Source of the DNA: Escherichia phage herni
Direction: 5' to 3' (one strand)
Length of the DNA: 50,971 nucleotides
Sequence record: NC_049823.1
Part shown: piece after piece, positions 8,695 to 47,310 of the stretch
Numbering within the stretch: position 1 is the stretch's first letter
Layout: every line of letters starts with the position of its first letter
Notes under the pieces: generated by a model
What the model saw: only the letters and a program-made list of their open reading frames with translations
Databases searched by the model: none
Told to the model about the DNA's origin: nothing
Position numbers and translations under genes: made by a program

Positions 8695-9810
8695 ATGAAG
8701 CAAATCAAAATCACAGATGAACAATTTATCAATGAGCGCAAGCAGGGAAAGACATATAAGCAGATAGCTAATGAGTATGGTATGAACGTTCGCAGCATTG
8801 AGCGACGCGCAGCGCGACTTGCAAAGCAAGGTAAAGTTACAACCATCGGATCACCTGGCTTTGGCGTTACTGGAGAATCAAAGCTAATTGATAAAGATGG
8901 CAATGTGGTTATGACATGGATTAAGACAAGCAAGGACCGCGAGCAGTTAGAAGCATTAATGCAGGCCGCTATGGATGCATTTAGCGAAGAAGTTCCGCGA
9001 CTTGATCCGCAACCAGAATCACAAAAGGATTATAGCGAGACGTTATCACTGTATCCGATCTTTGACATGCACTTGGGCGCAATGGCGCATAAGCATGAAT
9101 GCGGAGAGAATTGGGATACAGCAACAGCAGAGCGCGTAATGAATAATTTCATTGATTATTCTATCCAGTGCGCGCCGGATAGCGAAAAAGCTGTTTTGCT
9201 GATTGGTGGCGATATGCTTCACAGTGACGGACTTGAAGCGGTTACACCTGCAAGCGGTCACGTATTGGATCAAGATAGTCGATACGCAAAACTTGTTTAT
9301 GTTGCCATCCGGTCAGTGCGTCGAGCAATCACAAAGCTGTTATCAAAACATAAAAACGTAGAGATTCAGATAATTGAAGGCAACCACGACCAAAGCGGCA
9401 TGATCTGGTTGCGCGCAGCAATGGCGGCAGCATATGAGAATGAGCCGCGAGTGCATGTTGATGTGTCTCCGCGAGTGGTTCATCACACACAATATGGCAA
9501 AACATTCCTGGCATACCATCATGGGCACACTATCCGCAAGCCTGAAACATTGCTCATGATGTGTGCGGCAGACTGGCGCGAAGACTTCGGAAATTCAAAA
9601 ATGATGTATGCTCACGTAGGGCACTGGCATCATCAGACAGTAACTGAAACAAGCCTGGGCATTGTTGAAGTGCATAGCACTATGGCGGCAAAAGATGCAT
9701 ATGCGGCGCGCGGTGGATGGCGTTCTCGACGCCGTGCGGCTGTTATTGTTTACGATGAAGAATACGGAGAGGTAGGGCGATTTATGCATTATCCAGAAAT
9801 GGCTTATTGA
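8695..9810 (+). CDS. HTH domain fused to calcineurin-like metallophosphoesterase
   Basis: N-terminal HTH (KTYKQIANEYGMNVRSIERRAARL); phosphoesterase motifs FDMHLG, GGDMLHSDG, EGNHDQ, GHWHHQ; AAGGAGA Shine-Dalgarno. Confidence 0.7.
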   Translation: MKQIKITDEQFINERKQGKTYKQIANEYGMNVRSIERRAARLAKQGKVTTIGSPGFGVTGESKLIDKDGNVVMTWIKTSKDREQLEALMQAAMDAFSEEVPRLDPQPESQKDYSETLSLYPIFDMHLGAMAHKHECGENWDTATAERVMNNFIDYSIQCAPDSEKAVLLIGGDMLHSDGLEAVTPASGHVLDQDSRYAKLVYVAIRSVRRAITKLLSKHKNVEIQIIEGNHDQSGMIWLRAAMAAAYENEPRVHVDVSPRVVHHTQYGKTFLAYHHGHTIRKPETLLMMCAADWREDFGNSKMMYAHVGHWHHQTVTETSLGIVEVHSTMAAKDAYAARGGWRSRRRAAVIVYDEEYGEVGRFMHYPEMAY

Positions 9811-9853
9811 ACTTTTAATCATTAAAATATAAATATAAATCATAAATTTAATT

Positions 9854-9884
9854 GGGCGTGGCATTTTGCTTCGCCCTTTTTTTA
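9854..9884 (+). terminator. rho-independent terminator
   Basis: Hairpin GGGCG-n13-CGCCC followed by TTTTTTTATT. Confidence 0.6.
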
Positions 9885-9956
9885 TTCCTTTTTGTGCGTT
9901 CAATGGTTAGGATACAATCAATTAATTGTTGACTTTTATCTACAGGAGATCTAATC

Positions 9957-10172
9957 ATGAAAGATTTTTTAAACGCTGCAACTTCCGGCACTGGCGGAGC
10001 GTCAATCACTGGCGCGGTAACTGGTCAAACAACTATTGCAATAGCCAGCTTCGTTTTGATGGCTGCATTTGGTATGTGGGGCGCTTATCTTCGCTGGCGT
10101 GATAGTAAGGCGCTACGTGACGCGCTTGAATGCGGTGATATTAAGAAAGCTATTGAGATCAGAGGTAAATAA
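9957..10172 (+). CDS. holin (likely pinholin partner of the SAR endolysin)
   Basis: 71 aa, hydrophobic segment [21 protein letters not shown], charged C-terminus; immediately upstream of and overlapping the endolysin start. Confidence 0.6.
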
Positions 10173-10660
10173 TGAGTATAAAACAAAGAGTGACCGCTGC
10201 GGCTTTTGGCGTTGCTCTTGCCCTTACTTCTCCGCTACTGGAGGAAATAGAAGGAGTAAAACATAAGCCGTACAAAGATATTGCTGGGGTATGGACGGTT
10301 TGCGCCGGAATAACTGGCCCTGACGTAATACAAGGCAAAACGTACACACAAAGAGAGTGCGATGCACTACTGGCGAAGCATATCAAGATCGCAAAGGATG
10401 AAGTTGATAAGCGTGTAAAGGTTGACATTCCTGATACAATGCGCGCAGCAATGTATTCATTCACATACAATGCTGGAACTGGAGCTTTTAGAAATTCAAC
10501 CATGCTTAAGCTGATTAATAACGGTCGTTATATGGAAGCGTGCGATCAGTTATGGAGATGGACAAAATACACCAATCCAAAAACAGGAAAGAAAGAAACG
10601 TCTAAAGGACTGCGCAACCGCCGCGCGGTGGAATTTAAATATTGCATTAAGGATCTGTAA
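10172..10660 (+). CDS. SAR endolysin (T4-type lysozyme fold with signal-anchor-release N-terminus)
   Basis: Weakly hydrophobic Gly/Ala-rich N-terminal segment [17 protein letters not shown] followed by E-x8-D-x5-T catalytic spacing ([19 protein letters not shown]). Confidence 0.8.
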
Positions 10661-10662
10661 TT

Positions 10663-11061
10663 ATGCGAAAGTTATCAATAATCGCTATCGCTGTTATTTT
10701 GTCTGGATGTTCAAGCGTTACGCCACTGACCGGATTAATAGGTAGCAAGCCGGAAATCACAGCACAGGCAGGATCGGAGAACGTAAAGCAGGCCGTTGGC
10801 GTTACCGCAAAGCAGGACACCAGCACAAAACAGGAAACTACAATAAAGGAATCTGCGGTTGATAAGGTGGACACTTCCAGCAAGAAGGATTTCACTACGT
10901 CAACCATTCATGCAAACACCATCAAGGCTGATAAAATCCAGGTTGTGCAGGGTGAGCAAAGGAAGTGGTACGATCCTATAATCTATTGCGCTGCAATTTT
11001 CAGTGGTCTTTTGTCAATGCTTTACTTTTCCTACCGCAAAGGCAACGAAAAGGAGGCTTAA
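10663..11061 (+). CDS. unimolecular spanin (outer-membrane lipoprotein with C-terminal transmembrane helix)
   Basis: Lipobox LSGC at N-terminus, Thr/Lys-rich linker, C-terminal helix IIYCAAIFSGLLSMLYF; architecture of the T1 gp11 class. Confidence 0.65.
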   Translation: MRKLSIIAIAVILSGCSSVTPLTGLIGSKPEITAQAGSENVKQAVGVTAKQDTSTKQETTIKESAVDKVDTSSKKDFTTSTIHANTIKADKIQVVQGEQRKWYDPIIYCAAIFSGLLSMLYFSYRKGNEKEA

Positions 11062-11077
11062 CGCCTCCTTTGTTTTA
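11052..11077. terminator. bidirectional rho-independent terminator between convergent lysis and leftward genes
   Basis: Hairpin GGAGGC-ttaac-GCCTCC flanked by T-runs on both strands. Confidence 0.55.
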
Positions 11078-11311
11078 TAGTGAATCCATCAAATCTTGAA
11101 AGCTGTTTCCGCTATAATCATTCTCTACAAGAATGTAAGCACCTTTCTTCTTTATATCCCATAACATTTCATTGTATTCGTAACGATTTATTTCAAACGT
11201 GCTGCCATCTTCTCTTGTCGCAGTTCCTTTGTCATTGAAAACATCAAAAGTTACATTGATGATTTTTGTCTCTTTCTTTGTTACTTTGATAGCCATTTTT
11301 AAAATCCTCAT
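11075..11311 (-). CDS. hypothetical protein (78 aa)
   Basis: ORF track; GAGGA Shine-Dalgarno upstream of ATG 11311. Confidence 0.5.
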   Translation of the reverse strand: MRILKMAIKVTKKETKIINVTFDVFNDKGTATREDGSTFEINRYEYNEMLWDIKKKGAYILVENDYSGNSFQDLMDSL

Positions 11312-18239: not shown

Positions 18240-18268
18240 TTGACATGCAGGAAAGGCAAGGCAATAAT
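18240..18268 (+). promoter_or_regulatory. sigma70-like promoter (TTGACA, 17 nt, AATAAT)
   Basis: Near-consensus -35 and spacer length about 37 nt upstream of the gene at 18305. Confidence 0.5.
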
Positions 18269-18304
18269 TCATCCAGTTTAAACGCAACAAAAGGAGTAGA
18301 TGCT

Positions 18305-18790
18305 ATGAGCGAAGAAAATATTAGCACCATGTCGCGTAGTGAGTTTTGCGATATGCTTCGCGACTTGGGCGCGGCAATTGGTAGTGGTGAGCGTAATAAT
18401 GTATTCATGCCAGCACTTTTTTTGTGCGCTAATGTGGAGAACGGCGAAGCAATTACGGCATCGTACATGCGCCAAGTTGTCAACCGTGTGCCAGAAGTAA
18501 AGCAAAAAGGCGTGATCAGCATTAAGCGAAAGGTGACTGATGAGGGTGATGGCTTTGTGTTTACGCTCACCGAAGCCAAAAGCAAGCCTCGCGTTCTGAC
18601 TGGTGAAGAAATCGACGAGATCGCAGAAAAGCGCGCAGAGAAGGCGGTAAGCAAAATTCTTAATCACCTGGTAAACGTAATGCCAAATATCACAGACATG
18701 GAAGGCGACAAACTTGCTGGAGCGTGTGAGGCTATCGGGCGCTACCAGGATATGATTCGTAAACTCGCTGGAGGAAAAGAGGATGAATAA
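18305..18790 (+). CDS. hypothetical protein (161 aa), first gene of the rightward small-gene block
   Basis: Start at MSEENIS with AAGGAG Shine-Dalgarno; the track start 18245 lies in the promoter. Confidence 0.55.
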   Translation: MSEENISTMSRSEFCDMLRDLGAAIGSGERNNVFMPALFLCANVENGEAITASYMRQVVNRVPEVKQKGVISIKRKVTDEGDGFVFTLTEAKSKPRVLTGEEIDEIAEKRAEKAVSKILNHLVNVMPNITDMEGDKLAGACEAIGRYQDMIRKLAGGKEDE

Positions 18791-19043
18791 GGCATTAATT
18801 GGAGTTTTGATTGCAATTGCTACCCTGACCGGATGCGAAAAGGCATCTGAATCAACAGTTGTCGTAGGAGTGGAGTCAGATTTTAAAGTCGATCGCCTGT
18901 TTACTGTTGATGGATGCACTGCGTACCGATTCTATGACAACGGTCGAGCAATCTATTACACCAATTGTAAGGGAGCAACGGATAGCACATACCGCAGCGG
19001 CAAAAACGTAATGCACCAACAAGTCACAACAGATATGAAATAG
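18783..19043 (+). CDS. lipoprotein (86 aa)
   Basis: Signal peptide plus lipobox LTGC; stop embedded in the next motif copy. Confidence 0.6.
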   Translation: MNKALIGVLIAIATLTGCEKASESTVVVGVESDFKVDRLFTVDGCTAYRFYDNGRAIYYTNCKGATDSTYRSGKNVMHQQVTTDMK

Positions 19044-47082: not shown

Positions 47083-47310
47083 TTACATACTGCAATCAGC
47101 GTTTTTAAAGTTATCAATACTTACCCACTGAAAATTAAACGGATAGCCAGCCTTAACAAGAGTGCGGTCGCCAACTCGTTTTACTCCAAAAATAGCAACT
47201 GAATACTGCATACCGCTATTTTCATAAATAGCCGTGCATTCACGCTTAGGCATATTTGCGCAACCAGTCAGGGTTGCGGCTGCAATCAAAACGGCGATTA
47301 ATTTTTTCAT
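47083..47310 (-). CDS. small outer-membrane lipoprotein, possibly Cor-like superinfection exclusion protein
   Basis: 75 aa; signal peptide with lipobox LTGC; size and position next to tail genes as for Cor-type proteins; functional assignment is inference. Confidence 0.45.
   Translation of the reverse strand: MKKLIAVLIAAATLTGCANMPKRECTAIYENSGMQYSVAIFGVKRVGDRTLVKAGYPFNFQWVSIDNFKNADCSM

Follow-up and report, generated by a model that had tools for sequence, protein, structure and literature searches.

A probable T1-type lysis cassette of holin, SAR-type endolysin and unimolecular spanin in Escherichia phage herni

Introduction

Three consecutive genes of Escherichia phage herni raise the question of whether they form a lysis cassette and, if so, by which type of holin, endolysin and spanin the host envelope would be opened. 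The window analyzed here is the whole 50,971-nt sequence NC_049823.1, to which all positions refer. Reading the letters without database searches, a first-pass annotation had proposed a holin, an endolysin of the signal-anchor-release (SAR) type and a unimolecular spanin (u-spanin). The T1 counterpart, gp13/gp12/gp11, was reportedly described as a lysis cassette by Summer and colleagues in 2007. It comprises the holin gp13, the endolysin gp12 and the u-spanin gp11 (Kongari et al. 2018, PMC6139136). The latter is the prototype of the u-spanins; its wild-type lipobox reads LSGC, and it can stand in for lambda RzRz1 in complementation. The cassettes of the gp11 family, in which phage pSf-1 is listed, encode a pinholin together with a SAR endolysin (PMC6139136). 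The core arrangement exonuclease-holin-endolysin-spanin is present in 508 of 522 Drexlerviridae (PMC13164509).

We conclude that the window represents a T1-like phage of the Hanrivervirus type (Drexlerviridae), and that the locus is very probably the lysis cassette of this coliphage, orthologous to T1 genes 13-12-11. The cassette as such is already known: it is annotated in near-identical phages, and its type and spanin family have been published.

Results

Gene layout and boundaries of the locus

The locus consists of three open reading frames on the plus strand, taken from the ORF list and all starting with ATG (Table 1). The stop codon of the holin gene and the start codon of the endolysin gene have one base in common (TAATG), as in essD/rrrD, a gap of 2 nt separates the endolysin gene from the spanin gene, and Shine-Dalgarno-like GGAG, GAGG or AGGA sequences lie 5' of each of the three start codons. 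The tight packing noticed at first reading is thus borne out by the coordinates, the overlap and the gap. Matches to the profiles PHROG 2877, PF00959 and PHROG 7, and PHROG 1804 indicate that the three are not chance ORFs. Gene order is that of T1, whose proteins have near-identical lengths (71, 162 and 133 aa), are 59, 65 and 45% identical to the herni holin, endolysin and spanin, respectively, and include the same LSGC lipobox. Of 23 related viral contigs that were fetched, 22 carry the trio in this order, as does T1; in the remaining contig the endolysin gene lies 129 nt from the end of the locus, so that the holin position falls outside its coverage.

Table 1. Features of the lysis locus, with positions in the window. 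TMD, transmembrane domain.
Feature	Position	Strand	Description
Intrinsic terminator	9854..9883	+	Hairpin at 9854-9876, then U run; closes the upstream exonuclease gene
GGTTAnnAT element (GGTTAGGATACA)	9905..9916	+	44-52 nt 5' of the holin ATG
Holin, T1 gp13 family	9957..10172	+	71 aa; PHROG 2877 and identity to T1 gp13
Endolysin, GH24/T4-type lysozyme	10172..10660	+	162 aa; SAR-type domain ~7-23; triad E27/D36/T42
Unimolecular spanin	10663..11061	+	132 aa; lipobox LSGC (Cys16), periplasmic domain 17-104, TMD 105-124, basic tail
Hairpin terminator	11049..11071	both	Spanin stop codon in the loop; between convergent genes

Hairpins delimit the locus on both sides. The RNA fold of the upstream hairpin has an energy of -14.6 kcal/mol (z = -4.0; none of 200 shuffles was as good), and a hairpin followed by a T-run was found at the same place in all relatives including T1. 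The downstream hairpin folds on the plus strand (-14.7 kcal/mol, z = -3.3) and on the minus strand (-15.4 kcal/mol, z = -4.4), was also detected by a terminator scan, and coincides with an annotated terminator in phages vB_EcoS_G29-2 and T1. T1 shares with herni both the exonuclease gene upstream and a terminator hairpin covering the stop codon of the spanin gene. In T1, exonuclease and holin are separated by two genes, one for an HNH endonuclease and one with an SH3 domain (gene 14) (PMC13164509), whereas in herni this interval amounts to only 146 bp with the terminator.

When the regions upstream of the holin genes of the relatives and T1 were aligned, the GGTTAnnAT element was the sole well-conserved block, possibly a -10-like promoter element. 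As a recurring promoter motif of the phage it was not supported: the long form occurs once in the window, with 0.8 copies expected, and the short form ten times, with 5.2 expected, a count reached by 6 of 100 shuffles, and most of these copies are intragenic. A consensus scan recognized no sigma-70 promoter 5' of the cassette; the single consensus match, TTGACT-18-AATCAT, ends on the holin ATG and was discarded, the number of matches being equal to the shuffle expectation. Neither Rfam nor a tRNA scan turned up anything in the window, and NCBIfam yielded sub-threshold matches only.

Genome position and relatives

The cassette closes a rightward block that includes helicase, VRR-NUC, Dam and exonuclease genes and faces a leftward block in convergent orientation. 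It had initially been placed at the end of the early arm and far from the structural genes. The terminal position in the block stands, as does the distance to the terminase gene (about 16 kb), but only about 7 kb separate the cassette from a tail-fibre gene on the opposite strand; that the block is an early arm we infer and do not read from the sequence. At the DNA level the cassette shows 99% identity with vB_EcoS_G29-2 and 98% with Bas06 KarlJaspers, and over its whole length identities of 95-99% were observed with the Hanrivervirus phages vB_EcoS_G29-2, egaa, Bas06 KarlJaspers and pSf-1. The few substitutions relative to these phages include Ser38 and His90 of the spanin, which in nearly all relatives are Ala and Gln. 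The records of the Hanrivervirus relatives already name the genes holin and endolysin and label the third Rz-like spanin or u-spanin, the last being the label used for Bas06 KarlJaspers.

The spanin belongs to the T1 gp11 type

The product of the third gene matches PHROG 1804 ('Rz-like spanin') over its full length (3.8e-48), and BLASTP aligned it to T1 gp11 with 8e-35. Its N-terminus is composed of MRK, a hydrophobic run of 10 residues (Kyte-Doolittle hydropathy, KD, of 3.26) and the lipobox L13-S14-G15-C16, the same as in wild-type gp11. The first-pass annotation had named a lipobox LSGC and a C-terminal transmembrane helix as the hallmarks of this protein; both were found, and both are conserved, LSGCS being invariant in 23 distinct relatives and the C-terminal TMD and basic tail being present in all 23. 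Ser17 occupies position +2 and Ser18 position +3, with no Asp at +2, and all relatives have Ser at +2. By the established rule of the Lol pathway, a lipoprotein with no Asp at +2 is sorted to the outer membrane. The C-terminal segment P105-Y124 comprises 20 uncharged residues with a KD of 1.51 and is followed by RKGNEKEA. It is the least hydrophobic such helix among the relatives, and much less so than that of gp11 (summed Hessa values of +1.2 kcal/mol versus -3.7 kcal/mol). Cysteines are present only at positions 16, the lipidation position, and 109, inside the TMD, leaving the periplasmic domain free of Cys. In the gp11 family this domain is predicted to be rich in beta-strands and not to form a coiled coil (PMC6139136).

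An assignment to a T1 gp11-type u-spanin, as opposed to a two-component i/o-spanin pair, is upheld by the homology to gp11, by the architecture, and by the outcome of a search for lipobox ORFs, which found no embedded lipobox ORF and no i/o-spanin pair elsewhere in the window. Other lipoprotein ORFs in the window were limited to Cor (47083-47310, minus strand) and an 86-aa ORF (18783-19043). The latter was rejected as a second, two-component spanin: the 181-aa ORF ahead of it has no TMD, and thus no i/o-spanin pair is formed there. The cassette differs in this respect from those of phage 21 and DLP12, having a unimolecular spanin and no embedded Rz/Rz1 pair. With lambda Rz/Rz1 the herni protein has in common the predicted role and overall topology of an outer-membrane lipid anchor joined across the periplasm to an inner-membrane helix, but it is one polypeptide instead of two, lacks periplasmic cysteines and has no detectable sequence similarity to the lambda pair.

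The endolysin resembles the SAR endolysins R21 and RrrD

The endolysin matches PF00959 (5e-38) and PHROG 7 'endolysin' (3e-55). Its best solved relatives are R21 of phage 21 (3HDE) and RrrD of E. coli DLP12 (4ZPU), both at 2e-41; it is about 50% identical to R21 and 51% to RrrD, and the phmmer alignment begins at residue 3, covering the anchor region. In this comparison the SAR-type domain and the catalytic residues are aligned, E27/D36/T42 with E35/D44/T50 of R21. The E-D-T spacing claimed earlier was confirmed: the triad is spaced 9/6, as in lysozymes of the T4 type (Glu-8aa-Asp-5aa-Thr), and is invariant in an alignment of 47 sequences.

Preceded by K4 and R6, the segment V7-L23 is uncharged, with a KD of 1.84 and 53% Gly/Ala/Ser/Thr, values slightly below those of the R21/RrrD SAR segment (KD 1.99, 65%), which is 20 residues long in R21 versus 17 here. 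A basic N-terminus followed by an uncharged run of 14-20 residues was found in 114 of 120 database homologues (mean KD 1.76, 50% Gly/Ala/Ser/Thr). The description of this segment as weakly hydrophobic and Gly/Ala-rich needs one correction: the charge and hydropathy agree with it, but there is only one Gly, so that 'Ala-rich' fits better. Cysteines occur only at 44, 63, 124 and 158, and their absence from the SAR segment, shared with R21 and RrrD, sets the protein apart from the disulfide-isomerisation type represented by P1 Lyz. In R21 and RrrD a linker of six residues (TGPSGN) connects the SAR domain to the catalytic Glu; the herni endolysin lacks this linker, and in an AlphaFold model (pLDDT 88; residues 1-11 below 50) helix 14-27 runs straight into E27. 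Foldseek compared this model with full-length R21/RrrD (3HDE/4ZPU) at TM scores of 0.81-0.84, versus 0.60 for truncated, inactive R21 (3HDF). Homology to R21/RrrD across the anchor region and the match of the model to their full-length forms sustain the assignment as a SAR-type endolysin. These resemblances suggest that the domain may stay uncleaved and be released upon depolarisation.

The holin belongs to the T1 gp13 family

The 71-aa protein matches PHROG 2877 'holin' from residue 1 to 71, its full length (1.2e-35), and is encoded just 5' of the endolysin; its description as holin-like is corroborated by this membership in the T1 gp13 family. It has one strong TMD at 25-45 (KD 1.62) and a charged C-terminal tail. 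Abutting the TMD without a loop is the conserved segment 4-23, which is rich in Gly, Ser, Thr and Ala (75% Gly/Ala/Ser/Thr) and has a KD of 0.63, compared with 0.68 for TMD1 of EssD. The motifs FGxWGAY and TGG are kept across relatives. With S21 and EssD the protein has in common the length of 71 aa and a similar hydropathy layout, but it differs from them in having no detectable homology, dual start or inter-helix loop: BLASTP gave no match to S21/EssD even at E values of 100 or less, and the start codon is single, since neither an upstream start in the same frame nor another Met close to the N-terminus is present. Pfam holin families did not match the protein either, the only hit being a sub-threshold DUF3262. 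Since similarity to S21/EssD and a dual start are both lacking, the term 'pinholin' rests on context.

Alternative readings of the three proteins

A weak match of the 132-aa lipoprotein to PHROG 1119 'Cor' (1.8e-5) could be taken to mean that it is a Cor-like superinfection-exclusion protein or another outer-membrane lipoprotein and no spanin; the match, however, covers residues 1-57, essentially the lipoprotein signal region, and is dwarfed by that to the spanin profile. Given, in addition, the 45% identity to gp11, a C-terminal TMD that Cor does not have, the location directly 3' of the endolysin gene and a separate bona fide Cor gene elsewhere in the window (PHROG 1119, 3e-28), we regard this reading as virtually untenable. 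An ordinary cleavable Sec signal peptide on the endolysin, which would yield a secreted soluble lysozyme as in the oenococcal phage fOg44, appears unlikely. Although the uncharged run is short and contains A15-L16-A17 with Gly at -5, it extends six residues beyond this A-x-A, with no polar c-region before the site, and the R21 SAR domain with which it aligns carries A-I-A at the corresponding place and, in experiments, is not cleaved efficiently (PMC8385771). Relatives commonly have small residues at 15 and 17, but the -1 position is Thr in T1 gp12 and Met in another relative. The low pLDDT of residues 1-11 would suit a signal peptide, whereas the continuity of helix 14-27 with Glu27, and the likeness of the model to full-length active R21 and not to its truncated inactive form, favor a SAR domain. 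A precedent for cleavage is T4 RI, whose supposed SAR domain proved to be cleaved (PMC8385771). Finally, T1 endolysin alone lyses E. coli, which the cytoplasmic T7 endolysin does not, and this holin-free lysis by gp12 is compatible with either export mode (PMC10954549).

For the SAR-type endolysin, depolarisation would suffice, which speaks against a canonical large-hole holin or one with a single TMD in N-out/C-in orientation, and for an S21-type class II pinholin with two TMDs. The former nevertheless keeps appreciable weight, and we judge it somewhat improbable. Segment 25-45 is the only one to reach TMD-like hydropathy, GenBank notes give one TMD for the holins of vB_EcoS_G29-2 and T1, and the missing loop, the missing similarity to EssD/S21 and the missing dual start point the same way. 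Segment 4-23, on the other hand, is conserved and close to EssD TMD1 in hydropathy, and T1-type holins have been proposed to possess two TMDs and to be class II pinholins (PMC11447400, PMC6139136). Consistent with a pinholin, the T1 holin expressed by itself is weakly bactericidal and causes no lysis (PMC10954549). The 'single hydrophobic helix' of the first-pass annotation accordingly holds for the strong segment and agrees with the GenBank notes, but runs counter to the proposals in the literature; segment 4-23 is as low in hydropathy as TMD1 of EssD, and either one or two membrane helices may be present in the holin.

Discussion

The most probable reading, a lysis cassette orthologous to T1 genes 13-12-11, is contradicted by none of the observations and can be cast as a sequence of events. 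One transcript, between the two intrinsic terminators, would carry all three genes, and the TAATG overlap and the 2-nt gap suggest that their translation would be coupled. The holin, most likely a small-hole pinholin, would build up in the inner membrane, trigger at a set time and collapse the membrane potential. By homology, the endolysin would be exported by Sec via its weakly hydrophobic N-terminal domain and be held, inactive and tethered, on the periplasmic side of the inner membrane, holin-free export having been demonstrated by experiment only for the 65%-identical T1 gp12 (PMC10954549). Upon depolarisation the domain would exit the bilayer and the enzyme would refold such that, as in R21, Glu27 completes the E-D-T site and peptidoglycan is cleaved. 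The spanin, if it behaves like T1 gp11, would be lipidated at Cys16 and, because the +2 residue is Ser and not Asp, be sorted to the outer membrane, with its C-terminal helix staying in the inner membrane, so that one polypeptide would span the periplasm. After loss of the peptidoglycan mesh, the spanin would draw both membranes together and disrupt the outer one.

A more speculative idea, to which we give little credence, is that the T1-type holin is a distinct, non-S21 pinholin in which the Gly/Ser/Thr-rich segment lies against one true TMD, and that all three lysis proteins shift topology when the potential collapses. If true, the linker-less SAR endolysin and the clade's unusually weak spanin C-terminal helix would be read as signs of potential-dependent topology changes in all three proteins.

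The locus also reminds us that SAR behaviour has been ascribed to T1-type endolysins by inference, and that both the hole size and the topology of T1-type holins were assigned in the same way. As a discovery the cassette is minor, and the practical value of reading it in this way is correct annotation: it is a conserved lysis module, in a textbook arrangement for the Drexlerviridae.

Organization and relatives of the lysis cassette

Three tightly packed genes at 9957-11061, as proposed in the first-pass annotation, were matched exactly by the ORF list. The holin and endolysin genes overlap by one base (TAATG), only 2 nt separate the endolysin and spanin genes, and a Shine-Dalgarno-like motif lies ahead of all three starts. 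The region 9800-11200 shares 99% DNA identity with vB_EcoS_G29-2 (Drexlerviridae, Tempevirinae, Hanrivervirus) and 95-98% with egaa, Bas06 KarlJaspers, pSf-1 and others, and these near-identical records are annotated with a holin, an endolysin and an Rz-like spanin or unimolecular spanin (u-spanin). T1 has the same order, an exonuclease gene upstream, then holin ST13, endolysin ST12, spanin ST11, a terminator and convergent genes, at identities of 59% (gp13, holin), 65% (gp12, endolysin) and 45% (gp11, spanin). A search with the spanin as query retrieved 23 related viral contigs. The complete trio occurs in 22 of them; in the other, L025, the locus stops 128 nt short of the endolysin start, leaving the holin position uncovered. 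About 20 GenBank records titled 'Campylobacter phage' (e.g. A15a, A139) carry the coliphage cassette at 95% identity to 9800-11200, which points to wrongly assigned hosts, or to contamination of the data set by T1-like phages.

Coordinates of the cassette genes, flanking terminators and other lipoprotein loci
Feature	Position	Strand	Remarks
Holin ORF	9957-10172	+	71 aa; ORF list
Endolysin ORF	10172-10660	+	162 aa; ORF list
Spanin ORF	10663-11061	+	132 aa; ORF list
Hairpin terminator with U-run	9854-9876 (hairpin)	+	directly 3' of exonuclease gene; -14.6 kcal/mol, z = -4.0
Hairpin terminator	11049-11071	both strands fold	between convergent genes; spanin stop codon in loop
Cor-family lipoprotein gene	47083-47310	-	75 aa; PHROG 1119, 3e-28; superinfection-exclusion family
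Rightward ORF pair	18245-19043	+	181 aa and 86 aa, overlapping; within leftward gene block

Genomic context and upstream region

The cassette ends a rightward block of helicase, VRR-NUC, Dam methylase and repair exonuclease genes, and the leftward block facing it begins with a DUF3987 helicase. About 16 kb separate the cassette from the terminase gene, and a tail-fibre gene lies on the opposite strand about 7 kb upstream. One study reports the exonuclease-holin-endolysin-spanin core for 508 of 522 Drexlerviridae (PMC13164509). The exonuclease-holin interval spans only 146 bp (9811-9956) and lacks the accessory SH3-domain (DUF7244) gene of that study, whereas T1 and most Tunavirinae have it there, in agreement with its published patchy distribution. 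No tRNA genes, and no Rfam families at the gathering threshold, were detected in the whole window.

A hairpin terminator flanks the cassette on each side. A consensus scan found no credible sigma-70 promoter upstream of the holin gene. In an alignment with all relatives and T1, GGTTAnnAT is the one block that is conserved from the terminator to the ribosome-binding site. It follows the hairpin terminator at a distance of about 20 nt (together 9854-9916), occupies the same position in the related viral loci compared (L001, L003-L026) and does not clearly recur elsewhere in the window. Terminator and block also precede the holin gene in T1, where the gene upstream differs. The block may be a dedicated lysis-gene promoter element.

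Holin

The 71-aa protein matched PHROG 2877 'holin' over its full length (1.2e-35), while a Pfam search gave nothing above threshold (DUF3262 was sub-threshold). Residues 25-45 form one clearly hydrophobic segment (Kyte-Doolittle hydropathy, KD, 1.62) followed by a charged tail, and GenBank notes on relatives (G29-2, T1) record a holin with one transmembrane domain (TMD); the earlier description of a single hydrophobic helix is therefore fair. The literature differs, since T1-type holins are classed as class II pinholins both in the TLS re-annotation (PMC11447400) and in the Young laboratory spanin survey (PMC6139136). Residues 4-23 are conserved, 75% Gly/Ala/Ser/Thr and of KD 0.63, close to TMD1 of EssD, the S21-like pinholin of prophage DLP12 (KD 0.68). 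EssD shows no sequence similarity to the holin, which, unlike S21 and EssD, lacks a dual start and a loop joining its two segments.

Endolysin

The endolysin matched PF00959 (5e-38), and its closest solved structures are the phage 21 signal-anchor-release (SAR) endolysin R21 (full-length 3HDE and truncated 3HDF) and the DLP12 endolysin RrrD (4ZPU), at E about 2e-41. Identity to RrrD is 51% in the catalytic part. The T4 lysozyme triad is E11/D20/T26. Its 9/6 spacing recurs in E27/D36/T42, bearing out the E-D-T arrangement noted at first reading; these residues align with R21 E35, D44 and T50 and do not vary across 47 aligned sequences.

The alignment with R21 begins at residue 3 and so includes the N-terminal anchor region. 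V7-L23 is uncharged (KD 1.84, 53% Gly/Ala/Ser/Thr), preceded by K4 and R6 and followed by EE, and a basic N-terminus with an uncharged run of 14-20 residues, most commonly 17, occurs in 114 of 120 database homologues. The six-residue R21 linker TGPSGN is absent, placing the catalytic Glu four residues past the hydrophobic run. In an AlphaFold model built on the homologue alignment (mean pLDDT 88; residues 1-11 of low confidence), helix 14-27 leads into E27. Foldseek ranked RrrD and full-length R21 highest (TM 0.81-0.84 over all 162 columns), compared with a TM of just 0.60 for truncated, inactive R21.

A SAR-type N-terminus is highly likely. Its rival, a signal peptide that is cleaved off, could draw on the shortness of the hydrophobic run and on A15-L16-A17 with Gly at -5. 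However, the run extends six residues beyond this motif, the helix bearing it is continuous with the catalytic Glu, and position -1 is Thr or Met in T1 gp12 and another relative. In R21 itself the aligned position reads A-I-A, and experiments found that R21 is not cleaved efficiently (PMC8385771). Expression of T1 gp12 on its own is enough to lyse E. coli, whereas cytoplasmic T7 endolysin does not lyse it (PMC10954549); this shows export without a holin and fits SAR and cleavage alike.

Spanin

The 132-aa protein matched PHROG 1804 'Rz-like spanin' (3.8e-48). Its N-terminus comprises MRK, a 10-residue hydrophobic run, L-S-G-C16 and S-S. The lipobox recognized earlier is thus present, equals that of wild-type T1 gp11 (PMC6139136) and, with the following Ser, does not vary among 23 distinct relatives. 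In the periplasmic part, the conserved KPEITAQAGAENVKQ block is retained and cysteines are absent. At the other end, P105-Y124 provides 20 uncharged residues followed by a basic tail, fitting an N-out/C-in anchor. The helix is more hydrophobic in every relative; the version in the window has KD 1.51 and a summed Hessa energy of +1.2 kcal/mol, compared with -3.7 for gp11. It is nevertheless a plausible membrane anchor, in line with the transmembrane helix originally proposed. Identity to several relatives is 85-92% as far as residue 105, past which they are unrelated; the C-terminal module (residues 105-132, 10975-11061) is thus clearly mosaic in the family, its membrane helix being a swappable unit.

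Two residues distinguish the window's spanin from the 22 other distinct relatives: Ser at position 38 (10774-10776), where all others, T1 included, have Ala, and His at position 90 (10930-10932), where 21 have Gln and one Lys.

A Cor-like reading of the spanin was rejected, as the weak Cor match is limited to the signal region and the genuine Cor gene lies elsewhere, among tail genes on the strand opposite to the cassette. The ORF pair at 18245-19043 encodes two hypothetical proteins, one hydrophilic (181 aa, PHROG 4841) and the other a lipoprotein (86 aa, lipobox LTGC, Glu at +2, PHROG 6360); because the larger has no membrane helix, this is not an i/o-spanin pair. With gp11 homology, lipobox and C-terminal helix, and no two-component pair found in the window, the initial preference for a unimolecular spanin over an i/o-spanin pair holds.

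Interpretation

The sequence itself shows the gene packing with its translational coupling, the homology to T1 gp13/12/11 and of the endolysin to R21, and the architecture of all three proteins. Published work covers the arrangement, the family to which each protein belongs and the combination of a SAR endolysin with a u-spanin (PMC6139136, PMC11447400, PMC13164509); the finding is correct, ordinary and already known, down to the annotation of near-identical genomes. The locus is very probably a T1-type lysis cassette working as described for T1 and phage 21. The holin would trigger and form holes, its triggering and their size being inferred; the endolysin would be tethered and then freed on depolarisation, the spanin would be lipidated and sorted, and membrane fusion would be the last step.
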